Below are positions 11,401-60,588 of a DNA stretch of 64,000 bases, piece by piece. Under the pieces are notes generated by a model. It saw nothing but the letters and a program-made list of their open reading frames with translations, searched no databases and was not told the origin of the DNA. A program made the translations under genes and the position numbers. The DNA comes from Octopus vulgaris. Its lineage: Eukaryota. The first letter of the stretch is position 1; each line of letters starts with the position of its first letter. The stretch covers positions 34,844,001 to 34,908,000 of the forward strand of contig OX597827.1 in assembly GCA_951406725.2 (NCBI GenBank), read 5' to 3'.

Positions 11401-13011
11401 ACAAAGAGATGGACATAACACCCATTATAGTAAGATAGCAAATCTGCCCATCTACTATGGGAAATAAAGGGAAAGTATCGCAAATCTAAACCTTCTAAAT
11501 TCCTGAACTATACGAGGATGGGTGGAAATCCAGAGTTAATCCTCATCAAACAACAAAAAACAAATTAATACAAAACTCAATATCCACTAAATAATCATCC
11601 TTTTTCCCATTTTTTCTGCCAACAACCTTCTTGATTACCACCTTTGTAATCCCAAAAAACATTGTGACCATTTAACCATGGAGAGGGAACAGACAAATGG
11701 ACATAACTCCTATTATAGTAAGATTTGTTGTCATAGTATCACCTATATGCTTTCATGAATCTGTTATTATAAAACTTTAAACATTTTGAGAGCAAAGGGT
11801 CAAATATATGCTATGTAGTTGTGGCTCTTCCCACAAAGGGGAATTTATTGGTAATATTGATTTCAAATTTTGGCCCGGGGCCAGCAATTTTGGGGGAGAG
11901 ATAAGTCCAAGAGATCAACCCAAGTGTTCAACTTCTTATTTTATTGATCTTGAAAAGCACAGTCGACCTCATCAGAATTTAAATGCCAAAACCTTCCCAG
12001 GCGAAGAGTGTACCCCACAACATAGACTGGTAGTCAGTGACTTTAGAATCAGGACTAAGAGGACGACTAGAAGACGACCAACATGGAGAAGAAGGGTCTG
12101 GAAGCTTAAAGACCCTGCAAATGGACAGAGATTTAGAGACATGTTACTTGAAGCCTTCAACGAAATAGAAGGGGGTATAGCTACACATGGGGTAGAAGAT
12201 AACTGGACGCTTCTAAGGGACAACCTGCTGAAAGCCACAGACCAGATCTGTGGCTGGTGCAAAGTCCCCACAAGACCCAAAATAACGTGGTGGTGGAACA
12301 ATACTGTTGACAGGGCTATTAGACAAAAGAAACAGGCTTGGAAGGACTGGAAGAACGGTGGTAGCAGGGAAGTGTATCAGACTGCAAGAAGGGAGGCTAG
12401 GAGGCAGGTGTATTTAGCCAGAGGAGAAGCAGATAAGAAAAAAATTTGCCAATGTCCTGCGCCGTGAAGATGAAAGACTTGAGGTATTTCGTGTTGCAAG
12501 ACAGTATGTGAGAGAGAATCGTGACGTGGTAGGAGAGAAATGTGTTCGCAAGGATGACGGCTCACTTGCGCTAAATGAGGATGCAAAGAGAGAGGTTTGG
12601 AGACGCCACTATGAAAGGTTGCTGAATGAGGAAAATGAATGGGATAAAGAGAGTCTGCCGAATGTTGACCCAACAGAGGGACCAGCAATCCGAGTTGACA
12701 GTTCCTTAGTAGATAAGGCAATTAGAAGCATGAAAACAGGGAAAGTCCCAGGCCCATCAGGAATTACTGCAGAGATGCTCAAAATATCTGGTAGTGCTGG
12801 CTATAGCCTAGTCACCCTATAGTTAACCAGGTGATACACGAAGGAGTCATTCCCAATGACTGGTGTAGCAGCATAATAGTTAACTGCTACAAAGGTAAAG
12901 GTGACGCTCTAGATACAAATAACTACAGGGGTATCAAGCTGCTAGATCAGGTAATGAAGGTAACGGAGAGGGTTATAGCCCAACAAATTAGAGAGAGTTA
13001 GCTTAGATCAG

Positions 13012-14346
13012 ATGCAGTTTGGGTTCGTGCCAGGGAAAAGTACTACTGATGCTATTTTCCTTGTAAGACAGCTGCAGGAGAAATACCTAGCCAAAGACAA
13101 ACCCCTATACCTGGCTTTTGTCGATATGGAGAAAGCCTTCGACAGGGTCCCCCGATCCCTTATCTGGTGGTCAATGAGGAAGCTAGGGATAGATGAATGG
13201 TTAGTGAGAGCTGTACAAGCCATGTACAGAGACGCTGCTAGTAAGGTGAGGGTTGGCACCGAGTACAGTGAAGAATTCAGGGTAGAGGTAGGGGTCCACC
13301 AAGGTTCAGTCCTCAGCCCCCTCCTATTTATCATAGTCCTCCAGGCAATAACGGAGGAATTCAAGACTGGATGCCCCTGGGAGCTCCTCTATGCTGATGA
13401 CCTTGCTCTAATTGCTGAGTCTCTATCAGAACTGGAGGAGAAGTTTCAGGTGTGGAAGCAAGGTTTAGAATCGAAGGGCCTTAGAATCAACCTAGCCAAA
13501 ACCGAAGTCCTAATAAGTAGGAAGGTAGACCAATCACAAACGCCTTCAGGTAGATGGCCTTGCTCGATCTGTAGAAAAGGTGTAGGTAGAAACTCTATCA
13601 GATGCACCAAATGTAAGCTATGGACACATAAGAGATGTAGTAATGTCAAAGGAAGACTAACTAGGAAAATAGTTTATATCTGTGGCAGATGCTCAAGAGC
13701 AATAAACTCTGAAAATATGCAGAGACCAACTTCTATCAAGTTTCAGGGAGAAAAACTAGAAGTAGTTGATAGCTTCCGCTACCTAGGTGACCAAGTCAGT
13801 AGTGGGGGCGGGTGTGCTGAAAGTATAACTGCTAGAGTAAGAATAGCCTGGGCAAAGTTTAGAGAGCTCTTACCCCTACTGGTGACAAAAGGCCTCTCGC
13901 TCAAAGTAAAAGGCAGACTGTATGATGCATGTGTATGTACAGCCATGCTACATGGTAGTGAAACTTGGGCTGTGACTACTGAGGATTTACGTAAGCTCGC
14001 AAGAAATGAAGCTAGTATGCTCCGTTGGATGTGTAATGTCAGTGTTCATAGTCGACATAGTGTAAGTACCTTGAGAGAAAAGTTGGACCTAAGAGGCATC
14101 AGATGTTGTGTGCAAGAGAGACGATTGTGCTGGTATGGTCATGTGGCGAGAATGGACGAAGATAGGTGTGTGAAAAAGTGCCACACCCTGGCAGTTGAGG
14201 GGACCTGTGGAAGAGTTAGACCCAGGAAAACCTGGGTCGAGGTGGTGAAGCACGACCTTCGAACTCTAGGTCTCACCAAGGAAATGACCAGAGACCGAGA
14301 CCTGTGGAAGTATGCTGTGCGTGAGAAGACCCGGCAAGACCAGTGA
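13012..14346 (+). pseudogene. RTE reverse transcriptase ORF fragment (444 aa) with PHD-like Cys/His insert
   Basis: YADD, then CSIC..CTKC..H..C..CGRC, then FRYLG; upstream frameshifts near 12440-13010. Confidence 0.85.
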
Positions 14347-22466: not shown

Positions 22467-23690
22467 TTAATTGTGCACATCTGTGTGATAGACGTCCATC
22501 TGCTGTACAGAAGGGTGGTAAGCAACACTGATCTGAGGAGCAAGATTAGTATGGTAGAGTACATTGCCTGGATGTGGTTGTACAGTGATGTGATGGGGCA
22601 CATTGGTTAAGGTAGTTATAGTCGTTGCATTGCCATTGCCATGGTGAGCAGCGGCAGCTGTCACTGCAACTGGCTCTCCATTTTGTTCAGTTTCTACAGT
22701 CACAGCAGTTGAAGTCCCTTCTTCTGCAACAACACTGATACGAGGTACACAACTCAACTTTCTGACCCCTTTATTTGGCCGCTTGTGTCTTTCCAGATGG
22801 TCAATCCGCGTAAAGGCATAGCCACACAGTTCACACTTGAAAGGCCTCTCTCCAGAGTGAATGCGTTTATGGACACGTAGGTGATCACGCCGGGAAAATG
22901 CTTTGTTGCAGACATCACAGTTGAACAATTTAGGGCGTGAGTGTATCTTATGGTGAGTGGAGAGCTTGCCTGTTGTTGAGAATCCTTTACCACAAACATC
23001 ACAAACATATGGCATGACTGGAATATGCCCAGATGATGCAGAAAACTGACCTTGCTTTTGAAGACCAATGCCTTGTGATTGGTTGTATTCTCGCCAACAT
23101 TCTTCACAGTCAAATGGTGGATTCGATGTTACTGGTGCAATCTGGTTGGAGATAACTTGATGATGTTGTTGTTGTTGCTGAGGATAAACAAGATCACTGG
23201 ACCTCACTGCATTACTAGTATGTAGGTTTGCATTGTTATTCTTATTACTCTTTTTGACCCGATTTTTCTTCACAGGAGATGCTTGGGGTGTGGCAATTAT
23301 TTGGTTGTTGATGTTGTACACTTTGCCACTGTGTTGTGTACGTGTGTGCCGTACGAGGTAATCTTTCCGTGAAAATGCACACCCACATATATTGCACTTG
23401 AATGGGCGTACCCCAGTATGTATCCGCTCATGCACAGTGAGATGTGATTTCTGGGAGAAACTGCGATCACAGGTCAAACATGTAAAGAGCTTCTCACCGC
23501 GATGAGTGCGTTTATGACGCTCCAGATTGTGACGGCTGAAAATTTTGCCACAAATATTGCATACTGCTGTCTTATCAGTGACAGATGCAGTGGAAGCAGT
23601 TGTATTCAGGTGAACTATAGTGGCAGCTGTTTCTAAATCCTGCACATCACAATGGATCAAAGTAGCAGTACTGGGCATAAGAGTATTCAT
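22467..23690 (-). CDS. C2H2 zinc-finger protein (~407 aa from first ATG; two 3-finger clusters separated by a Q/N-rich linker) (ZNF2 below)
   Basis: Intact ORF; track start at 23723 is TTG, first ATG at 23690 (MNTLMPS); linkers TGVRPF, SGERPF. Confidence 0.92.
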   Translation of the reverse strand: MNTLMPSTATLIHCDVQDLETAATIVHLNTTASTASVTDKTAVCNICGKIFSRHNLERHKRTHRGEKLFTCLTCDRSFSQKSHLTVHERIHTGVRPFKCNICGCAFSRKDYLVRHTRTQHSGKVYNINNQIIATPQASPVKKNRVKKSNKNNNANLHTSNAVRSSDLVYPQQQQQHHQVISNQIAPVTSNPPFDCEECWREYNQSQGIGLQKQGQFSASSGHIPVMPYVCDVCGKGFSTTGKLSTHHKIHSRPKLFNCDVCNKAFSRRDHLRVHKRIHSGERPFKCELCGYAFTRIDHLERHKRPNKGVRKLSCVPRISVVAEEGTSTAVTVETEQNGEPVAVTAAAAHHGNGNATTITTLTNVPHHITVQPHPGNVLYHTNLAPQISVAYHPSVQQMDVYHTDVHN

Positions 23691-24319
23691 TGGTGACAAG
23701 GTAGAAAATCCAGAAACATACAAATAATTGAGATCTTAGAAAACAAAAAAAACTGACCCCTGGCTTTCTATAGTGAAACGGGGTTAAATATTATCTTCAT
23801 AGTAATTAGTTTAGTCTAATGAAAATAAAATGTTCATTAGGTTGCTTTCTTCCCTAAATTACTGGTTAGTCACACTCTGTATAATTTTTCTTTATAAAAC
23901 TTCATATATATAGCTTTTAAAAATAGTTTATAACAAAATGCTGGCAGCTACCATAACTAAAGATTTTAAAAAAGTAGTAGTAGTAGTATCAGCAAACATT
24001 AACAGGAGTTAGTTGACTTCGTGAATTGAATAACATGACAACACAAATAGAACCTCTTCCAAATAGTCTGCTTTGATTTCATTCCTCTCAGCTATCTTAA
24101 ATAGTTGTGACAAGAACAAGAGCACAACTCTGTAGAAACATGAGAGTGGATTAGCTCAAAGTTGGTAATAGATATGTGTCTCTATACGCATATGTATGTA
24201 TATATATATATACACACACAGAGGAAAGAAGGTAGTCAATATGTAGTGTTGGAGATAAAGGCACTTGGGTGACGTGGAGCAGCTAATATTTTGGTAATAC
24301 ACTTCAGCACAGCATCAAC
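23691..24319 (-). other. Putative 5' UTR part of the ZNF2 exon (acceptor at 24321-24320; alternative at 23736-23735)
   Basis: Minus strand TTATTTTTATCTTTGTAG|GTT. Confidence 0.45.
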
Positions 24320-42459: not shown

Positions 42460-45400
42460 AGTCCCACCCATGCCAGCTTCGTTACCCACCCTCTCTATGA
42501 TATAGCACATAAAATGGAGGTTATCGTGTATAGTCCTGGTTGGGATGGCGCATGTTTGCGCCTCGCCGATACTCAATTTGCCCCCCCCCATATCGCTAAG
42601 TTGAGTTACTGGGCATGATGATGATGCGAGATATGCACAAAGGCTGCGTCATCTCCTACAATTCTTTGACATTGAACAGATGTGATTGACGTTTGTCAAA
42701 CGCATTTTTCTACAACACATCTCTTTGAAAACTGTCGTCCTGAATAAGGCTAAGATCGAGACAGAGCGCTCGGTATCTGAAATGTTGAGAAGTGCTTACA
42801 GCCATCTGACAGGGTAATGTGGTCGGTGGAAGTTTCATGTTGGAATTCTAAAGGGAATTAGTGATAGACAAACACAACAGCAGTCTAGGAGAATTTCAGG
42901 TCAACGACGAAAACCAACCGGCTTGTCTGTTCGGGAGACTTTCGGGCCGGAGCCCGTAGATAATTTTAAAAAATCCCTAACCAGACAGTACTGCCATGGG
43001 GCATTGCCGGTCTGAGATAAACTCTACAAGTATGAAAGTGTCGTCAGCCGTGTCTGTCCGAGATGTACGCAGAGGGATGAAACCGTTGTGCTCACACTCG
43101 TTCAGTGTCCGAGCTTGACTGGTGGAGTTATGTCGAAAAGCAACTATCACAGAGAGGATGGATTCGGCTTCAACTGAGACTGTTGTGAAGATCGTCCTGT
43201 CACGTTCCTTTGGTCTGGAAAGGTAGACAGTCTTGTGACATTGTCGAAAGAGGCGGAGTGGTGGACGATATTGAAGTGGGTGCAGACAGGTACTTTCTTC
43301 TTTGGCCAAGCCGGCATCAAGTTTCACTTAAAAAGGAAAATATGGGCGGAGAGGGAAGTTGAAATTTGATAGAAGACGCGAATGAGAGTGATGAACATGG
43401 TCCGACTAAACGGTCTTGTGCTGAGCATACGCCTGCAGACTAGAGAAGAACAGTCGAGAGCGGGAACATTAGCCTTATTGGCCACGGTGACCGTGGTTTT
43501 GTGGAGTTTCGTCCAGTAGCCCAAGGAAGACTTTCAACACTTTGATGGAATTATTTGAATCTTATATTTTCGTTGCTTTTTGGTTTTACCCATTTTTATA
43601 TTCTGACCAGCGGGCCCGTCCCATCTACAAAAAAGCGGAAGAGTAAGGTGCTCCAATCTGATCGGACGTGAACTGGGGCAAGGCACGACGCTAAGTATAG
43701 TAGACGATGGATACGATGTAGGCGTTCGCTACCTCTGCCTAACGTTTCAGGGATAACTTCTTGCTTGTCACCGTCTTTGTCACCTTGTCCTATTTCTCCA
43801 ATTAGAGATCTGAATCAAACCAGACACCGAGCAATTTAAATGGTCCGTTCGTCTATCTCTCCATGACGCTACTGGACGGCATGGACCTATCTCTTCAGGT
43901 GCTGAGTTGCAGCTTCACCATTTTTCCTTGATTGATTGTAGCTTCCATCAGTGCCTTGAAGTTTTCGAGCGGTGCTGATCACCTCGATGTACTTGAATGA
44001 ACTTGCTTCTAACACCATGAAATTTACGTCGTCCCCAAATGCCGATAAGGATCTTTTGCATCCCAGTGCGCGTGAGCTGCCTCTCAACGACTCGAGCTTC
44101 TGTAGTAGTGGTCGATCCTCAATACCCACAAAAGAGACGCAAAGGGACGATCTTGAAGCACCGAGAGTATGATACTGACTGGTTCCGATAGGTGGCCAGT
44201 CACTCTTACCACCGAGCTGATGTCGCTGTACATTGCGGCGATCTGACCAGCGGAACCTGTTCCCTCCAGAGAAAGTGGAAGAACAAGCGCTCCAGTTTGG
44301 TCGGTCATGAAACAGAGCAAGCACAACAGTCAGGTGTTAAATGATGTATGGATACAATGTGGCATTCACCAATTCCGCACGTCTCTTCAGAGATAGCTTC
44401 CACTCGGGCCCATTTCTGGATGTGATTTATCACTCCACTCGTCACCACGCCCCAATTCTTGTTCACTTGATCTGTATCAAACTGGACCCCGTGCAATTCA
44501 ACCGATTCGTCTAGCGCTTCACGACGCTGTCGGGTGGCATGGATCTACCTCTCCAGGCCCACCAAGATTTTCTGGTTAATTTTTACTCCTGTAACCGCTT
44601 CATACATTCTCAGAGCTGTGCCGCTCACCTAGTTGTATTTGGTGTCCGACGCTATAACGGGGATGCCATTCACATATGCAGACACAGTTCTCCCACATCC
44701 TAGTTCACAGGAATACTCCTCGAAACCTCTAATTTCTGCAATAGTGGCTGAAGCGCATGATACTGAACGGTTCCGATAGATCCAGTTACTCTCACCACTG
44801 AGTAAATGTCGCTATACATTTCAGTAGGCCAACCTCTGAAGACGGGATCGAAATCAACCGCCGTGAGGACAGCCGCCAAGTATTGATGGCTAATCCTATC
44901 GAATGTTTTCGACTACCTAAACTGATGATGGTCCCATCCATATCAGGTTCTTTACTTACTCTTTCTATGACGTATCGCGTGAGGTGGAAGTCATCGTGGA
45001 GAGATCTGTTTGCTATGGTACATATCTGTGTGTCTCAACAGATCATCGATGAGAAGTGCCAAACTCTTCGCTAACATTTCGGCCAAAATCTTCAGTTCTG
45101 CATTTATTGGCATGAAGTTGTTAAAATCATCTACCTTGTTTGGGTCGTTTCTCAGTAGTGTCACCATATCTCGTTTTGCAAAACTGGCAATTCTTCCGTT
45201 CTGCTACTGACATCTGCCCGAACACGTTTGGCATTATAGAGATAAAACTCGTAGGGCAGTCCATCCAGCTTTGGTGATTTCTCTCTCGTGCAGCCAATCA
45301 TCGCTTCCTGTATTTTATTAGCTGTTATCGGCCTTTCACGTAATTCCGCGTTTCCAACTGAGAGAAGGCTAAAAAGACGTCGAGGTAGGCAATAAAATTC

Positions 45401-46930
45401 ACCCCCATTTTCCGTTCACCGTCCACCCCAAACATTTGAGAAGTACCAGGGAAAAGCCCTACGCGTCTGCTTGGAATCTTATAGCACACACCCATCCCGA
45501 TTGGTCAAAGACTGAATTGTGGCTTTGTTGACACGTGGACCCTTTGCCTGCACCATTTCCAGTGCCCATCTAATGGTTCTGACAATGCAACCTTCATGAA
45601 GAATTGATTAAGGGCCAATTTCGCGCGTGTATCTCTACATATAGCTTTCCAAAACACCTCTTTGAGATTTATAACTAGCTGTCCCTCTATTCTAAAATGC
45701 TCTGTCACCATTTCCTTACTAAACCTTATCGGTTTATAAACCTTATCGATTCATAATCCCGTTCAGGACTAACCACAATCAGTTGTCGACGGTCACTCCC
45801 GTCAACTTCCTCTTAACTAATTCTATAATCCTTTCTCCGTAAACATGACATGCCGAAAAAATGCGTTCAGTTTCCAGTAATTGGGTCCCTGTCTAGCAGC
45901 TCATCTAGGTCGACCGTACAGATCACAAATTTGTGACCTGTGTAACCGACAACTTCGAAATGTGAACATTTTATGCTAACCGTATCTACTGGCCTACAGA
46001 ATACTCTGTCTAGAGTTTTCTGTGTGATTCGATGCTGTTTGACCGCGTTCACAGTGGCACATTCGCAAAATCAAGTCGATACCTCTCCGACAGATGGAAA
46101 CCTTTGTGCACGTTTTTTGCAACCCAGTAAAGTTTCGCGATCTCTCAACATAATGTATGCCAATATTCATCAGCAGTCTAGCTCTGATAGGACTCCCTGC
46201 ATTGTTATCTTTACTGCTCTTCTTCCCAAACAAACGAGAAATATAGTGAAGTTCTCATGTCGGCCGAGTGACCACTGTATATTGTACAACGAGAATCTCA
46301 GCCTTAAATAGGACCGTGATTCCACCGAACTGCGTTGCTCTCAATATATCCGATGTCCTGCCATACATCGCAAAGGGCTTTTGTATCTGCACATTCGTGA
46401 CCATCTCTGGGTGACGGTTAAACTCACGATGCGAATTTTATCACTGTTTCTAGCGATACATAACTGTCTTCTTAGCTAGGGTGTCACGATGAAGCGCAAG
46501 CTCGGCTTTTCTCCTTCTCAATTTTCCTAAATCGAGCGGTGTTTTCTAATTTTTCACCATTCATCTTCTAGGATAAACTATCTAAGGAAACCTCTGTAGT
46601 GGCTTCATGCAGACATGGCATGGATTCTATCCTCAATTACCGAATTTCACTTAACAGTTCAACCGCACTTTTCTCACGGTAAAACATTTGTTTTCTGTGA
46701 GTGACAGCAGTTACATTTGCCAGATGCCTTCGCTAATCAGAATAATGTCATTGCCACCTGAGCCTTCTAACCTCTTCTAGGCCACCAAAAGCTAGAATAG
46801 AGATAACAGACCGCCAACGAAATCTGTTGTTCTCAACAATATGTCTATCCTTCTGGCTGGTTTTGGATAGTTATAAAAACAAAAACTCCGCAAGCCAAAG
46901 TCAGTTAATGAGAATCGAGTCAGGCTGACC
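42460..46930. mobile_element. Scrambled, decayed Tx1/L1-type ORF2 fragments (mostly minus; C-terminal part plus at ~42900-43400)
   Basis: QTCAIPTRTIHDNLH, SAFGDDV, SPKLDGLPYE, HFEVVGYTGHKFV, GALPV..CPRC..DET motifs. Confidence 0.7.
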
Positions 46931-46949
46931 GGCTGAACAAAACGCCGTC

Positions 46950-47194
46950 TCTGAAGGAAAAGGCACAAAGGGATAACTACGGTAACTCACCAACGAAGCA
47001 AGTGTTTCGTCCCACCACTCTCACTTTCACTAACACACTTTCTTTTCTCTTGCCATATCTCTCTGTATCATCCGTCGTGGTATGGCATATATCAAAGTAA
47101 CGGTAAATAAATATTTCTTTACAACTTCGATCACTGTTCTTCGTTCATCTTTCACATCTTACAACATGCCGCTACAATAACAACAACTGTTACA
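46950..47194 (+). mobile_element. LTR-like 3' part (R-U5) ending TGTTACA
   Basis: AATAAA at ~47106, terminal ...TGTTACA, 2-nt spacer, then tRNA-Trp PBS. Confidence 0.55.
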
Positions 47195-47196
47195 AT

Positions 47197-47232
47197 TGGT
47201 GACCCCGACGTGATTCGAACATGCAGCCTTCT
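47197..47232 (+). other. tRNA-Trp primer-binding site extended to 36 nt (antisense copy of tRNA 3' half with CCA)
   Basis: Reverse complement AGAAGGCTGCATGTTCGAATCACGTCGGGGTCA-CCA matches the metazoan tRNA-Trp 3' half as recalled, with one transition. Confidence 0.8.
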
Positions 47233-47582
47233 ATTGCGACAAGAGCCGTTACAAAGGCAACAAAGAATAGCCCAATCGTTACACTTCGCAATTGTTGGTG
47301 TTGTTGTTGCCGCTGGTGGTCTTGCTACTGCTGCTTCTGCTCCTATAGTTACCTTATCTTTGCCACTTCTGTCGAGGAGAGAGATCAAATCGATTGCATC
47401 GACCCCCAGTACTTGACTAGTTCTTTATTTTCTCGATACTGACAAAACCGACAGCAACATAAGTTGAAGAAGTACCACAAAACATTTTGCTCGACGCTAA
47501 TGATTAGCAAATGTTCAACTGTTCCCACAACTTTTTATAAATACTTAAACTATGACTATTTTCCTTTATAGAAGCAGAGACC

Positions 47583-47996
47583 GGATCATTTCGGTTTGAA
47601 CGGCAGTTTTTTCTAGCGGTGTCATATGAAATTGTCACCCATAATTATGACCCTAGAATCGTTCTATTGCATTTCAATCTCTTTTAGGGTTAGGGTTAGG
47701 GGTGGGGGAAGGGTATCTTTTTTTCTTCACAAATGTAAATAAACCCAATCTGTTTCTTAAACGAGGGACATATTCATACGGCACAGAATACTTTTTAACA
47801 CAATAGACGTCACTGATTGGTTGAAATTGCAGAAATTGAAGAAAAAACAACAAATATCTTACAAACTATAGAATTTTTTCGATAAAGCCAAGAGAAAAAG
47901 ATGTTTTATAAACACATTCTACCAGTATACGAAGTTTAAAATTTTTTAGTTACCTAGAAATTATGTTAAAAATTGCCGTTCAAACCGAAAAGATCC
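47583..47996. mobile_element. 414-bp MITE, probably Merlin superfamily
   Basis: ~28-bp TIRs starting GG (GGATCATTTCGGTTTGAACGGCAG / TTGCCGTTCAAACCGAAAAGATCC); perfect 8-bp TSD CAGAGACC. Confidence 0.8.
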
Positions 47997-48669
47997 CAGA
48001 GACCACCGTTCTGTTTCCGCTATTGATTTCTGTTGTCTCAACAACAGAATTTCATTAAAAACCAACAGAATAATTGCCTCCAGTCACTGTCATCAAATTC
48101 CTTTTCATCAACAAACTCATTAGCCTAAGGACCTACACTACAACGTACGAATGTAGGTACATGGTCAACATGTAAGGGATGACCTAGCGTTAAATAATAG
48201 CAGCAGCAACAACAACAACAACAACAACAACAATAAGAACAACAGCAGCGACAGCATCTTCAATAACAGGCATACAAAGAACGACTGGATTGCAGAGGAA
48301 TCCCAAGACTACAATATTTCACTCAATGCGATTTATCACGGTTTAAGAACGCCGTGTCATTCTCAATTGGATCAGAGCAATGTTCGTCTGGTGAACAAAT
48401 ATAGTGTAGATCGCACCATGTCAGCCGACTGGTCACCCTTATATGGCATTTGTTTGTTGTATCGGGAATGAAATAACAATATGAACAACTAAATAGCATA
48501 TACTTCCATATATCCTCTACAATTGTACATTTCTTTAACACTTACTGAACTTTTCCAGTCATTCTGCTTTCCACCTCAAATTTGGTTAATGTCGATGATA
48601 TTAACTAAATTTCATTGATACTAATCAAATTTCGTCGATACTAACCAAATTTCATCACTCACCCAAATA

Positions 48670-51477: not shown

Positions 51478-52640
51478 CTAGCAGAGATACCCGGCGTTGC
51501 CCGGTTACATTCAATTGAAGAATTAGACTTTTCTGTTATATTTTCTGTAATGAACTGGAATACCTATGTTTCAAATTTCATTAAAATTGCAGATGAGGGT
51601 TATTTCCCTCTTTACACACCCTAAAAAATTGTAATCGTACCACATGTATCCCATACTACTGATTTTTATGTGCATATTCCAAAATTCCAGTCTTATAGAA
51701 CCTGTTAAAAGGATTTTGCTCTTGAAATATGGAGGTCATGGAGCTCTAAAATGTGAGAGTTAGCGCCCCTATTGGGGGTGGGCATCTTAATGCCAACCAG
51801 AGAAGTTGAATTGTTGAGAATCTTTTTAATTTGGGTCTTATATCTATTGTTTGAATTTCTTTGAAATAGGAAATATATGTTCACTGGGTTTGTAAAAGAG
51901 AGCAAAGCTACAGGAAACCAAAAGACGAATGATCACAATAAGCAGTCAGCTACAGTACCCTAGTCGTTACCACTCCCAATATAGGATTCCTCACCATCCA
52001 GGTGACAGGCACAGCCGTAAGATGCATTACGAATCTATAGCAATTGGAAGGGCGTGACCCAACTGAAATAAACATGAACAACTGTGTGACGTGAGGGCTA
52101 AGGAGAAATGAAAGCTGGAGTTTGCAAATTACCACTATACTGATACGTAACTGGACAGAGTAAATATACAATCTATAAATGTCTTTGAATAACCAGTCAC
52201 TCATTTGGGAAGACCTTGAAATCAATGTTACCGTGTGGAGACTATGTGTGACCGAGTGATAATAAAAAGACTGAAAGGAGGTCTGCAATCAAATAACTTT
52301 ACTCAACACTTTGCAACTGAATCAGTGGAGGCAAAGATGTCTCTCATTTACTTGACAATTTATGCAGCACATTGCAGAAATCACAATGTAAGTGTATGTC
52401 AAAGCAAACTGTTACACTGTTGTACCATTGAATAAGAAATAATGCCCAACTTTTATGCTTGGGTAACCCTACAACTTCCAAGAGTACAACTGTATTCGTT
52501 TTTGCTTAGATAAAATGACAAAATTGTGGGTGTTAAGTCCCCATGGAGGGGTCTTTCTAACTTTGTAAGAAGATGAAATTTTATAAATATTACTTCATTT
52601 GTATCTAATATATATGACTAAAATTTGGCAGTTAGGGTGT
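51478..52640 (-). mobile_element. Non-autonomous Helitron, long family (copy A)
   Basis: 3' end CCGGGCAACGCCGGG hairpin plus CTAG on minus strand; inverted match to 55640-56748. Confidence 0.8.
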
Positions 52641-52714
<74 letters not shown>

Positions 52715-52938
52715 TACAAAGATAAATTGATAGATTTATCTTTGTATGTGTGTGTGTGTGTGTATATATATAACACCCTAATGGGAGCCTTAACTGCCAA
52801 ATTTTATTCATTTCTTTTATGATCCAAAACTAGGTCAAAAGTACTGAATGGATTTTTATGAAATTTGGAAATTATATTCTATGCATAAGGGCCATAAACC
52901 CCATGACAATTCATATATTTTTACTGTTGGCAAGACTA

Positions 52939-53514
52939 GAGCGATAAAATGAAGTAGCTGTTCGTCAAACGTGATCGATAAAATGACGTAGCGGTTCGCC
53001 AAACGAGATCGATAAAATGACGTAGCGGTTCGCCAAACGAAATTGCTAAAATGACTTAGCGGTACGCCAAACATGATCCATAAAATGACTTAGCGGTTCG
53101 ACAACGAGATCTATAAAATCACTAAGCGGTTCACCAAACGAGATCGGTAAAATGACTTTGCGTTTCGCCAAACGTGATCGATAAAATGACTTAGCGGTTC
53201 GCTATTCAAGATCGATAAAATGACATAGCGGTTCGAGAAATTAAATCGATAAAATGACTTAGCGGTTCGCCAAACGAGATCCATAAAATGACCTAGAGGT
53301 TCGGCAAACGTAATCGATAAAATGACCTAGCTGTTCGCCAAACGAGTTCGATAAAATGACGTAGCAGTTCACCAAACGAGATCAATAAAATGACCAAGCG
53401 GTTCGGTGAACAAGATCGTTAAAATGGATTAGCGATTCGCCAAAAATGAGATCGATAAAATGACCTAGCGGTTTGCCAAACGAGGTCGATAAAATGATGT
53501 AGTGGTTCGACAAA
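52939..53514. repeat. 34-bp minisatellite, ~17 units
   Basis: Consensus GATCGATAAAATGACNTAGCGGTTCGCCAAACGA. Confidence 0.95.
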
Positions 53515-53554
53515 CACACACACACACACACAAACACACAAACACACACACACA

Positions 53555-53596
<42 letters not shown>

Positions 53597-53616
<20 letters not shown>

Positions 53617-54632
53617 TCTAGTTGTGTGAGTGTCTGTCCCCTTCGATTTAGATTCCTAACTCCTCCCACATTTTGCGGTGCAGTTTAACCAAATTCGGGT
53701 ATCTTATAGTCGTGATTCATATCGAGCCCGTCTGACTATTAGCGCGCGTCAACGATGAGTCTACGATTTTAAAAATAATTTAACATAATTTTTTATTCCA
53801 TTTTAATGCATAAAATGCATCGTATGTCGATGGCGGCGGAGTTGGCGTCCACGCTCACAGCTGCACCTGTTTGCTTCTCCCCCTTCCCTCCCTCGTGAAG
53901 CTGTGGGGAAGGGAGTGTAAAGAAATCAACGTCGTAATGCGTTGTGAAGGAAACCAGCGTTCTTTTAGAACAACGACTTCATGGCTTGAAGACACCAAAA
54001 CAAAAATGGCTAAGAAAGCCCGAATTGGCATCTATAAGGGAAGTAACTCTCTAAAAATGCTTATATAGTTATTTCCCTTACAAACCCGAGCAACGCCGGG
54101 CGATACTGCTAGTATATCTATATATATAAAACTGTAGTTGTGTGAGTGTCTGTCTCCTACGATTTAGATTCCTAACTCCTCCCACATTTTGCGGTGCAGT
54201 TTAACCAAATTCGGGTATCTTATAGTCGTGATTCATATCGAGCCCGTCTGGCTATTAGCGCGCGTCTACGATGAGTCTACGATTTTAAAAATAATTTAAC
54301 ATCATTTTTTATTCCATTTTAATGCATAATTTTTCGTGTGTCGATGGCGGCGGAGTTGGCGTCCACGCTCAAACACCTGCACCTGTGTTTGCTTCTCCCC
54401 TTCTTCCCTCCCTCGTGAAGCTGTGGGGAAGGGAGTGTAAGGAAATCAACGTCGTAATGCGTTGTCAAGGAGACCAGCGTTCTTTTAGAACAACGACTTC
54501 ATGGCTTGAAGACACCAAAACAGAAATGGCTAAGAAAGCCCGAATTGGCATCTATAAAGGAAGTAACTCTCTAAAAATGCTTATATAGTTATTTCCCTTA
54601 CAAACCCGAGCAACGCCGGGCGATACTGCTAG
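53597..54632 (+). mobile_element. Two head-to-tail ~516-bp non-autonomous Helitrons (B 53597-54112, C 54117-54632)
   Basis: 5' TCTATATATAAAA (copy C); both end CCCGAGCAACGCCGGG-CGATACTGCTAG|T. Confidence 0.88.
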
Positions 54633-54770
54633 TATATATATATATATATAGTTATCGCCAAACTAATATCCAGTAACGCTGCCGTAATCTCCTTTAGAGA
54701 GACTTAGTAATTTTAATAGTTCTATTATATATATATACATGTGTGTATATGTGTACATTCATATTTATTA

Positions 54771-55159
54771 CTAGCAGTATCACCCGGCGTTGCTCGGGTT
54801 TGTAAGGGAAATAACTATATAAGCATTTTTAGAGAGTTATAGCCCAAAAATAGCAAAAAATGGAAAAAAAATTATGGTAATTTTTTTTTAAATCGTTGAC
54901 TCATCGTAGACAATTTTAGAGAGTTACTTCCCTTATATAATAGCGAAAAAATGCATTAAAATGGAAAAAAATGATGGTAAATTTTTTTTAAAATCGTAGA
55001 CTCATCGTAGACGCGCGCTAATACACAGAAGGGCTCGATATGAATCACGACTCTAAGATACCCGGTTTTGGTTAAACTGCACCGCAAAATGTGGGAGTAG
55101 TTAGGAATCTAAATCGCAGGAGACAGACACTCACACAACTTCACTTTTATATATAAAGA
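54771..55159 (-). mobile_element. Non-autonomous Helitron, short-family variant (copy D)
   Basis: Same termini as B/C on the opposite strand, different internal segment. Confidence 0.85.
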
Positions 55160-55161
55160 TA

Positions 55162-56748
55162 TCAAAGACAATGTCTTTATGTGTTCGTGTATTACTTATA
55201 CATTCGAAAACTGCTGTACCGATCATAATGAAATTTGGAACACAAAATCGAAGCCTAGGGAGAAGGTTAATGCTGTGTGTTTCATACAATTTCATGGACC
55301 AAAATCACTGAATGGATCCTTATGATATTTGAAACTTAGATTCAATGCATTTGTGCGGGTATAATGCAATATGTTTGGTTTGAATTTCATATATTTTCGA
55401 TGTTGATGAAATTTCAACCATGCGTAATTGACACACATCAAGAAGTATTCTCAAAGTTTCCACTTCACATGAGGATTCTAAGACACACTAATGGGGGCCT
55501 TAACTCCCAAATTTTAGTCATTTCTTTTATGATCCAAAACTAAGTCAAAAGTACTGAATGGATCTTCACGAAATTTGGAAATTATATTTTATGCATAAGG
55601 GTCACAACCCCCATGACAATTCATATATTTTTAAACCATAGATATTAGATACAAATGAAGTAATATTTATAAAATTTCATCTTCTTACAAGTTAGAAAGA
55701 CCCACAATTTTGTCATTTTTTCTAAGTAAAGACGAATACAGTTGTACTCTTGGAAGTTGTGGGGTCATCCGAGCATAGAAGATGAGCATTATTTGTAATT
55801 CAATGGTACAACAGTGTAACAGTTTGCTTTGACATACACTTACATTGTGATTTCTGCAATGTGCTGCATAAATTGTCAAGTAAATGAGAGGCATCTTTGA
55901 CTCCACTGATTCAGTTGCAAAGTGTTGAGTAAAGTTATTTGATTGCAGATCTCCTTTCAGTCTTTTTATTATCATTCGGTCACACATAGTCCCCAGATGG
56001 TAACATTGATTTCAAGGCCTTCCCAGATGAGTGACTGGTTATTCAAAGACATTTATAGATTGTAAATTTATTTTGTCCAGTTACGTATCAGTATAGTGGT
56101 AATTTGCAAACTCCAGCTTTCATTTCTCCTTAGCCCTCACGTCACACAGTTGTTCATGTTTATTTCAGTTGGGTCACGCCATTCCACTTGCTATAGATTC
56201 GTAATGTATCGTATGGCTGTGCCTGTCACCTTGATGGTGAGGAATCCTATATTGGGAGTGGTAAAGACTAGAGTACTGTAGCTGAATGCTTATTGTGATC
56301 ATTCGTCTTTTGGTTTCCTGTAGCTTTGCTCTCTTTTACAAACCCAGTGAACATATATTTCCTATTTCAAAGAAATTCAAACAATAGATATAAGACCCAA
56401 ATTAAAAAGATTCTCAACAATTCAACTTCTCTGGTTGACATTAAGATGCCCACCCCCACATTAACTCTCACATTTTAGAGCTCCATGACCTCCATATTTC
56501 AAGAGCAAAATCCTTTTAACAGGTTCTATAAGACTGGAATTTTGGAATATGCGCATAAAAATCAGTAGTATGGGATACATGTGGTACGATTACAATTTTT
56601 TTAGGGTGTGTAAAGAGGGAAATAACCCTCATCTGCAATTTTAATGAAATTCGAAACATAGGTATTCCAGTTCATTACAGAAAATATAACAGAAAAGTCT
56701 AATTCTTCAATTGTATGTACCTGGGGCAACGCCGGGTAACTCTGCTAG
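55162..56748 (+). mobile_element. Non-autonomous Helitron, long family (copy E)
   Basis: A|TC start; ends GGGCAACGCCGGGTAACTCTGCTAG|T. Confidence 0.8.
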
Positions 56749-57810: not shown

Positions 57811-58529
57811 GCTCGCTTATCGGTTAATACTGTATCAGCATACAATATAAGTTCTCGAATATTGGTGTGAGTTGGATTTTATGTTGTCTATACCAGTGGT
57901 TTTAAAATTTAGGTTGTCTACACCAGTTGTTTTAAAATTGAAAGCACCAGCTTCCGCAACCAAATACCCCTCCATCTTTATTAATGAAAAGAAAATCATA
58001 AGTTCGAAGTCTTATAATAATTTCTTTCTTTGACATGATGTTGGGAAAATTCAAAAGTTACGAAATCATCTAATTTTATTTTGCATGGCAATTTGTTCAC
58101 TGCTTTTTCAATCCTCACAGGTCTCCTCAGAGAGAGAGCTACCCTCTATGAGAAACACTGGTCTCTGCTCTTTACTTATTTTTGTAGGGGTCATAAGCGG
58201 CTGTTGAAGGAATGTGTACTGAGGGTTTGTGAATGATAGTAGCGATATCTATCGACACCGTCTTGATATAATTTTGGTCGTAGTTCGTCATTTTATGATG
58301 TATGACACAGGCAATCGACCGGACGCTTGGGTTCAGTCTAAAGATCCATGTTCCCGGCATAGTTTAGCTTTGCATAGTTGAGGACCATACTTGATACTCT
58401 AACATGTGGTGGTTGGTGTTTAGCTCCACCTACAACAAATAGTTCCTAAAAGGTAAAAAGAGAAAAAATACTCAAAATGAGCAAAGTTCAATGAGTATTG
58501 AACTGTCACTGGGAAATCAATTGAAAATG

Positions 58530-59972
58530 TCAAATATAAATAGTTTTGGAAAGTTTTTTCGGCCAGTGAACAGTTCTGCCTGACCTCGTAACATAAGGTC
58601 TGGTCGAGGCAGGCTGCGACGACGAAGGTGGTGATGTCGATGTTGGTGTTGATGATGGTGCATGTGTAAATAGTGGTGTTGTCAAAGGTGCATGTGAAGG
58701 TTCAACGATGGTTGTGGCAGTGGGGTCATTAAAAGATGTGGACACCTCAAAATATGCCCTTTTAAGACGATCTACGGAGACGGTCTCCGAACGACTGTTA
58801 ATTTCAAGTTTGAATACCTTCGGCGTGCGAGAAATCACACGAAAAGGTCCTTTATAAGGAGAAACAAGAGGTCCTTTGACAGAATCATCACGAATAAAAA
58901 CATGCGTCCAAGAATTAAGGTCTGATGGCACACTAGAAGGAGGATTTTTGTGTCGAGGGTCCATAGGAGGAAGGGCAGAAAAATATCTGCGTAATCGAGC
59001 AACATAAGACTCTAAATTAAGAGACTGTGACTTGTCTGGCACCAACATCGTACCAGGCAATGCCAGTGTGGTACCATACAAGAGCTCGGCAGACGAAAAA
59101 CCAAGGTCTGCTTTAATCGCAGTCCGACATCCAAGCAGGACGATCGGTAGAATTTCAGTCCATGACTGTGGATTCGGCGAGGCACGCAAAGCGGCCTTAA
59201 GTTGCCTATGGAAACGCTCCACCATCCCATTAAAAGCGGGGTGGTAACTTGTGGTGCGTATATGATGCATCCCCAGGATTCGTGATAACTCACGAAACAA
59301 TGCAGACTCGAATTGTCGACCACGATCTGTGGTTAAACTGTACGGTACACCATACCTCGAAATCCAATTAGATACGAAAGCCCTCGCAACAGTTTCAGCT
59401 GAAATGTCTGCTATAGGAATAGCTTCCAGCCAGCGTGAAAAGCGATCAATACAAGTTAAAATGTATGAGAACCCGCGACTCACAGGCCATGGTCCAACCA
59501 AATCAAGGTGGATATGGCGAAAACGGGCTTCAGGAGAGGAAAATTGTCCAAGTGGAGCACGAACGTGTCTATGGACTTTAGCACTCTGGCACCTCAAACA
59601 AGAGCGTGCCCAAGAGGTAATTGATCGTCGCATATTGGGCCAGAAGAACCGAGCAGTAACAAGCTTTACTGTGGCAGAGATACCTGGATGTGACAGTGAA
59701 TGAAGAGCATCAAACACAGAACGTTGATGTTTCTCAGGTACTAATGGTCTAGGTGAACCGGTAGAAACGTCACAAAGAATAGAGCCTTCCGCTGTAGGGA
59801 GCGGAAGGTAGACAAACTTACAGTTAATAAACTTAGGCGAAGTTAAATCCAACTCCTCTAAAGGTGGTTGATCCTGCGAAATAGCAGTTAAATCAATTGC
59901 TGCAGGAGAGGAAATGGAATTGACAGGGAGTCTAGAGAGAGCATCTGCAGGGACGTTCTCACTGCCTGGCAC
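58530..59972 (-). mobile_element. Ty3/Gypsy integrase region (CsRn1/Kabuki-like), 480-aa open fragment without gag/RT
   Basis: HSLSH..CLRC zinc motif, [36 protein letters not shown]. Confidence 0.92.
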
Positions 59973-59973
59973 A

Positions 59974-60588
59974 TGCCTGGTACGATGTTGGTGCCAGACA
60001 AGTCACAGTCTCTTAATTTAAAGTCTTATGTTGCTCGATTACGCAGATATTTTTCTGCCCTTCCTCCTATGGACCCTCGACACAAAAATCCTCCTTCTAG
60101 TGTGCCATCAGACCTTAATTCTTGGACGCATGTTTTTATTCGTGATGATTCTGTCAAAGGACCTCTTGTTTCTCCTTATAAAGGACCTTTTCGTGTGATT
60201 TCTCGCACGCCGAAGGTATTCAAACTTGAAATTAACGGTCGTTCGGAGACCGTCTCCGTAGATCGTCTTAAAAGGGTATATTTTGAGGTGTCCACATCTT
60301 TTAATGACCCCACTGCCACAACCATCGTTGAACTTTCACATGCACCTTTGACAACACCACTATTTACACATGCACCATCATCAACACCAACATCGACAAC
60401 ACCACCTTCGTCGTCGCAGCCTGCCTCGAACAGACCTTATGTTACGAGGTCAGGCAGAACTGTTCACTGGCCGAAAAAACTTTCCAAAACTATTTATATT
60501 TGACATTTTCAATTGACTTCCCACTGACAGTTCAATACTCATTGAACTTTGCTCATTTTGAGTATTTTTTCTCTTTTTACCTTTTAGG
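59974..60588 (+). repeat. Inverted duplicate of 58445-59059 (integrase C-terminus plus 3' flank)
   Basis: 615 bp, 8 substitutions counted by eye. Confidence 0.95.

Follow-up and report, generated by a model that had tools for sequence, protein, structure and literature searches.

During reverse transcription of LTR elements, the plus strand copies the LTR and then enters the attached primer tRNA. According to the accessible text of PMC8599865, the retroviral enzyme normally halts before A58 of this tRNA and copies more of it when the stop is missing. The plus-strand strong stop at m1A58 is described there for tRNA-Lys3 in HIV-1 and tRNA-Pro in M-MLV, and its role as the in vivo stop has been argued for decades; an additional stop that involves extended genome-tRNA pairing is reported too, and over-extended strands are said to be unable to finish plus-strand synthesis or to integrate (PMC8599865). 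Ty3 copies 12 nt of tRNA-iMet, and its first, tRNA-bearing plus strand is displaced and accumulates in quantity as a dead end (PMC5371799, accessible text). Ty3 and Ty1 do not normally inherit their primer-binding site (PBS) from the tRNA, and their short PBS is accompanied by a second block that pairs with the tRNA (same text of PMC5371799). The CsRn1 clade (CsRn1, PwRn1, and AgCR) combines a tRNA-Trp PBS with a 4-bp target duplication, TGT...ACA ends, and a CHCC motif (accessible part of PMC2582038). Read-through in vitro, the stop at m1A58, and dead-end plus-strand DNA are known already. Our search of freely accessible main texts found no report of integrated fossils that join an LTR to a long tRNA copy and keep the signature errors of tRNA modification, nor of tandem PBS arrays in U5; the accessible parts of PMC4139406, PMC9223172, and PMC12789967 hold nothing further on overshoot fossils.

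The window, that is, the whole stretch of DNA analyzed here, comprises 64,000 nucleotides of the 2.8-Gb genome of Octopus vulgaris (C14:34844001-34908000). Within it lies a single LTR whose 3' end includes a copy of part of a mature tRNA-Trp. The features are as follows, in window coordinates:

43500..46594, minus strand: decayed LINE-like host DNA that received the LTR, found by six-frame translation; the left limit is the start of the translated stretch
46591..46594, plus strand: left half of the target duplication, CCTC (4 bp)
46595..47283, plus strand: single LTR, with its 3' array of end motifs, from a non-coding Gypsy-type family; other copies share its TGTAG start
47169..47176, plus strand: LTR end motif no. 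1, decayed, CCGCTACA
47187..47194, plus strand: LTR end motif no. 2, CTGTTACA, followed by a 2-nt spacer (47195-47196)
47197..47232, plus strand: antisense copy of nt 76-41 of mature tRNA-Trp, CCA included, 36 nt, 35/36 identical
47233..47245, plus strand: 13-nt junction behind the tRNA tract, as similar to the tRNA 5' end as to the family unit
47246..47253, plus strand: re-made LTR end motif behind the tract, CCGTTACA
47254..47283, plus strand: last unit, made of a 22-nt spacer and the terminal end motif TCGTTACA (47276-47283)
47284..47287, plus strand: right half of the target duplication, CTTC, matching the left CCTC in 3/4 letters

The initial annotation had described an LTR end followed by a 36-nt copy of mature tRNA-Trp with no gag-like sequence behind it. 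The upstream DNA is a true LTR, as two-LTR members of the family exist; the copy lies where it was reported, and no gag-like sequence was found behind it. The LTR starts at 46595 and not near 46950 as first proposed, and the element was wrongly taken to end at the tract: two more end motifs follow, to 47283. The four motifs finish at 47176, 47194, 47253, and 47283, where CTTC follows, opposite CCTC on the left. A 4-bp target duplication flanks 46595 and 47283, with one of its letters mismatched; we estimate that a match of at least 3/4 arises by chance in ~5% of cases. Other copies carry ~100 bp at 47068/47072 that the window LTR lacks; a first look at the genome gave 867 candidates for this LTR. 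The host sequence 43500..46594, which we take to be LINE-like from its translation, has only four copies in the genome, all distant, and is unrelated to the tRNA finding; its two short ORFs gave no Pfam match.

Contigs from related organisms cross the junctions. Those of organism C cover 45900-46674 (X10) and 47104-47583 (X14), and a contig of organism D (X17) spans 47187-47587 with 1 difference. As these contigs come from other sequencing runs, the window structure is not an assembly artefact. Organism C has the same insertion, ~92% identical across the left flank (65 differing letters in ~775), and 10 extra letters after 47245 that contain one further end motif. The insertion is already present at the 5' junction in organisms C, D, and E. 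The structure is real and predates the split from organism C. An empty site was not found among the host LINE copies, which are distant, the matches of the right flank, which were only to simple repeats, or organisms C, D, and E, which are filled. L214 is weakly colinear across the insertion site, and the breakpoint is not placeable from it.

The tract at 47197-47232 matches a tRNA-Trp gene of the same genome (L063; tRNA-Trp(cca) by ARAGORN) plus CCA at 35 of 36 positions, the sole mismatch being a CpG transition at tract nt 26. It ends at tRNA nt 41, within the 3' strand of the anticodon stem. The position opposite A58 (T at 47215) is read correctly. No TGG precedes the tRNA-Trp genes among the gene matches listed, which confirms that the CCA is not gene-encoded, as the initial annotation had assumed. 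Searches with reversed patterns gave 0 matches, which excludes a chance match. ARAGORN predicted no tRNA gene in the window, Rfam found no tRNA match in 46000-48000, and neither the whole fold nor the two promoter boxes of a tRNA gene or tRNA-derived SINE are present at the tract. Because the window tract has no misread letter and stops 3 nt short of G37, its origin is argued from the CCA, its register, and the population of similar tracts. The repeated end motif had suggested a whole-tRNA retrocopy with a 7-bp duplication, a candidate that was ruled out when the motif proved to be the LTR end of the family. Most of the tRNA-Trp genes lie on C6 at 58.38-58.67 Mb (L064-L080), in a cluster of ~20 that are mostly identical.

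The window LTR belongs to a Ty3/gypsy family with direct terminal repeats, TG...CA ends, a PBS, and a polypurine tract. Two-LTR members with both PBS and polypurine tract are L233, whose LTRs are 94% identical, and L174 and L175, whose LTR pairs are partly deleted. None of these three encodes proteins, and the two-LTR members and long stretches that were examined yielded no coding element bearing the LTR of this family. The internal region is related to that of the young element L173 (73-76% between L233 and L173), itself related to the coding element L239 (74-83%). L236 and L239, which carry LTRs of other families and the same PBS, encode a CHCC Gag motif and reverse transcriptase (RT), RNase H, and integrase in the gypsy order. 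The family resembles the CsRn1 clade in its tRNA-Trp PBS, 4-bp target duplication, and ends, and the CHCC motif is found in the coding L236 and L239. Unlike CsRn1, it is non-coding, and its U5 arrays of old PBSs and end motifs are absent from the accessible CsRn1 account (PMC2582038). The tRNA-Trp primer proposed by analogy with this clade is the one used: the tract matches tRNA-Trp plus CCA and the family PBS pairs with the same primer. The family would thus work like a non-autonomous CsRn1-type element that has no protein of its own and only an indirect link to coding elements. A separate young non-coding family primed by tRNA-Trp (L031-L060, e.g., L173 591-3140) has LTRs that are 99.5% identical, and nearly each copy differs in the 20-30 nt directly before the U5 end motif; in L056, a PBS-plus-leader unit is duplicated.

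The 3' end of the family LTR is often an array of units, each with a PBS decayed to a varying degree, followed by a spacer and by the end motif (C/T)CGTTACA. Both LTRs of L233 share this array, which is therefore inherited. Tandem Repeats Finder detected no array at the end of the window LTR. Perfect 4-bp duplications flank the solo LTRs L005, L019, L023, and L191. Among 25 rows tabulated for the family, the duplication is perfect in 4 and has one mismatch in 3, with the LTR ending at the last motif; most of the remaining rows are 3' LTRs, microsatellite sites, or ends misplaced by the script.

At eight of the ten sites clustering with the window LTR, the PBS is 9-12 nt long and runs into a shared leader; the two long sites (window, 36 nt; L144, 34 nt) came from the long-tract search and their ends differ. 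Similarly, 35 of 37 PBS-like units match the tRNA over at most 15 nt (56 array stretches, some loci being present twice). With a PBS of only 9-12 nt, this is not a long-PBS family, contrary to one option of the initial annotation, and the short PBS of its members provides the support for read-through that had been predicted. In 5/8 family leaders, the tRNA is matched a second time, near nt 50-40 and close to register, by an exact block of 8-9 nt; at least 9 nt are matched by 1% of random 38-mers, and the leaders, being related, are counted as one observation. Like Ty3 and Ty1, the family thus has a short PBS and a second block able to pair with the tRNA (PMC5371799, accessible text). By its resemblance to their bipartite PBS, this second block could be a putative landing site for overshoot strands. 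Loci L092, L101, L106, L109, L110, and L153, as well as L094, L112, and L157, show a short PBS, an A-rich spacer, and a second tRNA-complementary block. This arrangement, with the second block complementary to the region of the variable loop and T stem, is a possible split PBS in two families. In L150 (1200-1260), exactly 18 nt precede a normal leader in a family with a 12-nt PBS; judging from this arrangement, the PBS was apparently overwritten from the tRNA. In L149, 18 nt are followed by an inverted U3 end.

Pattern searches of the genome retrieved 44 distinct CCA-bearing antisense tRNA-Trp tracts, 28-51 nt long by our end-calling rule. A further tract, the 45th, is found on the opposite strand of L148 and is 65 nt long; L172 is a full-length copy of 75 nt in which A58 is misread and 1 nt is missing at G26. 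Most of the 44 tracts have differing ends and junctions and lie behind several unrelated LTR families. Clustering by the 350 nt upstream assigned 27/44 to seven groups of two or more loci, and 17/44 remained single. The tracts are partly non-independent: L053 and L145 share a junction, and L132, L134, L135, L143, L145, L147, and L161 share a leader.

Opposite A58, 13 of the 44 tracts are mismatched (7 A, 5 C, and 1 G). The other A/T positions between 4 and 29, within the search pattern, are mismatched in 6/439 cases (Fisher p 9e-11 against A58), a control biased by the search itself, in which position 19 was unconstrained and one mismatch was tolerated at the other positions. Outside the pattern, A/T positions 30-39 are mismatched in 2/130 (p 3e-7 against A58), a control that depends on the end-calling rule. 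Among tRNA gene copies, A58 is changed in 1/29 (L070, with the same change as seven tracts). The single G (L134) is probably later drift, since L134 and L135 have a mutation and their flanks in common and L135 has T opposite A58; this leaves 12/43, and the junctions of these 12 are all distinct. Nineteen tracts reach G37, opposite which they have C in 10, A in 6, and G in 3 (one of the latter, L140, may be target DNA), so that 9/19 are misread; the tRNA genes have C in 29/29. All six tracts with A at this position then give the correct next letter, T. The commonest tract end, found in 8 tracts by the end-calling rule, is just at G37. Three tracts reach nt 50; the break comes before G26 in two of them and directly behind it in the third.

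In tRNA sequencing, mismatch and stop peaks at positions 58, 37, and 26 correspond to m1A58, m1G37, and m2,2G26 (accessible parts of PMC5066629 and PMC8062790). The A58 and G37 errors in octopus are as expected from reverse transcription of modified mature tRNA. From this correspondence, we infer that A58, G37, and G26 of octopus tRNA-Trp are m1A, m1G, and a methylated G, respectively. The read-through past A58 advanced in the initial annotation is thereby supported by the error pattern over the 44 tracts.

Overshoot ends of the sibling tracts have several fates. In L083, L130, L138, and L168, the tract is followed by a short shared sequence and a second copy of the U5 tip, and the element is flanked by a perfect 4-bp duplication. 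L129 has a perfect 4-bp duplication and combines the tract with an inverted U3 end. In L122 the whole LTR forms a palindrome and in L167 there is a short inverted tip, each with a duplication matching at 3/4 letters (by eye for L167). Fold-back or head-to-head arrangements are seen in L085 and L148. In L053, L132, L134, L135, L143, L145, L146, L147, and L161, the tract leads to a new end motif with a fresh PBS or a shared leader. The window copy, from its sequence, fits the re-capped or the leader class, with one more unit behind the tract. No duplication was seen at nine tracts with a placeable LTR start (L088, L123, L131, L136, L139, L141, L142, L166, and L172), for which integrase-free capture is possible; in the remaining tracts, the LTR start is not placeable for this check. 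A 4-bp match behind the tract of L140 was not counted as a duplication, because the left flank resembles a polypurine-tract remnant. An inverted match at L144 was rejected as a fold-back, as it sits in the flanks, outside the LTR.

We consider, with a probability of about 0.78, that the window tract was copied from the mature tRNA-Trp primer during plus-strand synthesis of a Gypsy (CsRn1-type) LTR element, which likely passed A58, and that the strand then likely returned to element DNA, acquired an end motif again, and likely owes its insertion to integrase. Its source would be an element primed by tRNA-Trp at a PBS of 9-12 nt and dependent on a putative helper; the PBS, the two-LTR members, and the polypurine tract are found in the family. 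Plus-strand DNA from the polypurine tract copies the whole LTR and enters the attached tRNA, as is established for LTR elements. Complete LTRs starting at TGTAG and the exact PBS register show this step here; the antisense, non-encoded CCA stands in that register, within a match of 36 nt where the family has 9-12 nt. The RT would sometimes pass A58, often misreading it, and stall or misread again at G37 and G26, as seen in the error pattern. The overshoot end would be rescued by a template switch to the U5 tip, to its own strand, or to the leader through the second tRNA-complementary block. The re-made end would then be integrated with a 4-bp duplication, which is observed for siblings and, in 3/4 letters, for the window copy.

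The first part of this scenario, in which a plus strand primed at the polypurine tract copied the LTR, entered the tRNA, passed A58, and left it at nt 41, is in our view highly probable. The second part, a template switch that regained an end motif and an insertion by integrase, at once or after another cycle, is probable. As another unit follows the tract, the window copy may have gone through one more copying round with the tract already in place. Such a cycle would involve priming at the downstream PBS and then solo formation, a course inseparable here from immediate insertion.

As in retroviruses, the octopus RT would enter the primer tRNA, normally halt before A58, and copy more when this stop fails (compare the accessible text of PMC8599865). 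Unlike the retroviral expectation, the octopus germ-line genome holds such strands, several with integrase-type duplications and with the misread letters kept. Ty3-type displaced plus strands would be a ready source of such substrates. The copied stretch is longer in octopus, 28-75 nt of tRNA-Trp against 12 nt of tRNA-iMet in Ty3. In contrast to the Ty3 dead end, the octopus overshoot products appear to have been rescued by template switching and integrated, and some long tracts stand in inherited leaders.

Among the other explanations, the best placed is a variant of overshoot followed by rescue, in which the enzyme copied the whole tRNA but skipped the part between the anticodon stem and the D arm; 47233-47247 would then be the tRNA 5' end. 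Full or near-full read-through does exist (75 nt in L172 and 65 nt in L148), and 9/13 aligned columns of the junction match the tRNA 5' end (p ~0.02). However, a common family unit matches 47233-47245 equally well (p ~0.02 for both, in a post hoc test), and differences would be denser in the junction (4 in 13) than in the tract (1 in 36). We therefore regard this variant as unlikely. Scored as the best over all arrays, the junction gives p 0.8. The likeness of the last-unit spacer (47254 on) to family units is non-significant (p 0.19).

One option of the initial annotation was capture without integrase. Overshoot plus-strand DNA would have been captured at a DNA break by host repair, and the later motifs would be flanking DNA or chance. 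A precedent comes from Ty1, whose 3' LTR intermediates, with additional nucleotides that occur solely in cDNA, enter the yeast genome at breaks (accessible part of PMC11372161), and both the nine sibling tracts without duplication and the imperfect duplication of the window copy would agree with it. The Ty1 captures, however, are repair at induced breaks (PMC11372161), whereas the window copy has a re-made end at 47276-47283 and a near-perfect 4-bp duplication (CCTC/CTTC), and siblings have perfect ones. Furthermore, two family-type end motifs lie within 51 nt behind the tract, with a third in organism C, and LTRs of the family have their end at the last motif of this kind, flanked by 4-bp duplications. 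For the window copy, break capture is thus improbable.

A tRNA-half retrocopy made by a LINE, or a piece of tRNA gene DNA, landing beside the LTR end is more improbable still. The LTR sits in LINE-like DNA. LINE-made retrocopies would likewise bear CCA and modification errors, which counts in favor of this explanation. Against it, the tract starts at the PBS spot of short-PBS members in every clustered family and is antisense to the LTR, neither a poly-A tail nor a duplication of its own surrounds the window tract, and the genes lack CCA. A minority of tracts could still be of LINE type, as ~17/44 have no family mate upstream. Least probable of all is a naturally long family PBS, decayed in most copies and kept in the window copy: the second 8- to 9-nt block in 5/8 leaders could be its relic, but the leader between the blocks is A-rich, unlike the tRNA T arm, only 2/10 sites are long, the young two-LTR member L233 has a short PBS, and inheritance would not explain why unrelated families differ in the letters misread at A58 and G37.

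On the reading of overshoot followed by rescue, the window copy alone is of modest interest and the weight is carried by the whole set. These events, which took place naturally in the germ line, show how far past A58 a Gypsy RT reaches, which letters it inserts, where it halts next, and how the strand is rescued. They would make tRNA modification state readable from the genome alone, in animals without tRNA chemistry data and backwards in time. They also offer another way for solo and palindromic LTRs to form, which matters for the solo-to-full ratios used to estimate recombination. More tentatively, and with somewhat more doubt than belief, we suggest that overshoot in tRNA-Trp-primed Gypsy families may be a recurring side pathway. 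Displaced plus strands would re-cap or fold back and integrate as one-LTR or palindromic elements, so that some "solo LTRs" would never have been full elements. A split PBS would let others re-enter the lineage, U5 lengthening into an ordered series of former primer sites. A datable germ-line record of tRNA modification (A58, G37, and G26), older than the split of the present species, would then be stored in the genome.

Among the set are also real tRNA-CCA-U5 chimeras, a type of structure that was once put forward as the seed of SINEs. In the strong-stop model of tRNA-SINE origin, reportedly put forward by Ohshima et al. in 1993, the copied primer tRNA is joined through its CCA to U5. The octopus tracts differ from this model in having whole LTRs, as plus-strand products, and in mostly lacking the tRNA 5' half. 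Read on the other strand, L172 (1501-1574) is a whole tRNA head followed by U5, joined through CCA, a form once suggested for founders of SINEs.

Elsewhere in the window, 58445-60588 is a Gypsy integrase fragment with an ORF at 58530-60002 (Pfam rve and Integrase_H2C2), the last 615 nt of which stretch are repeated inverted at 99%. From this arrangement, it is a young fold-back product and perhaps another aberrant reverse transcript. Two long C2H2 zinc-finger ORFs are present at 1807-2901 and 22467-23735 (minus strand), and an ORF at 12979-14346 combines an RT with a PHD finger. A pair of inverted repeats of 762 nt, 95% identical, spans 51773-56458, and a 34-nt tandem array occupies 52858-53515.
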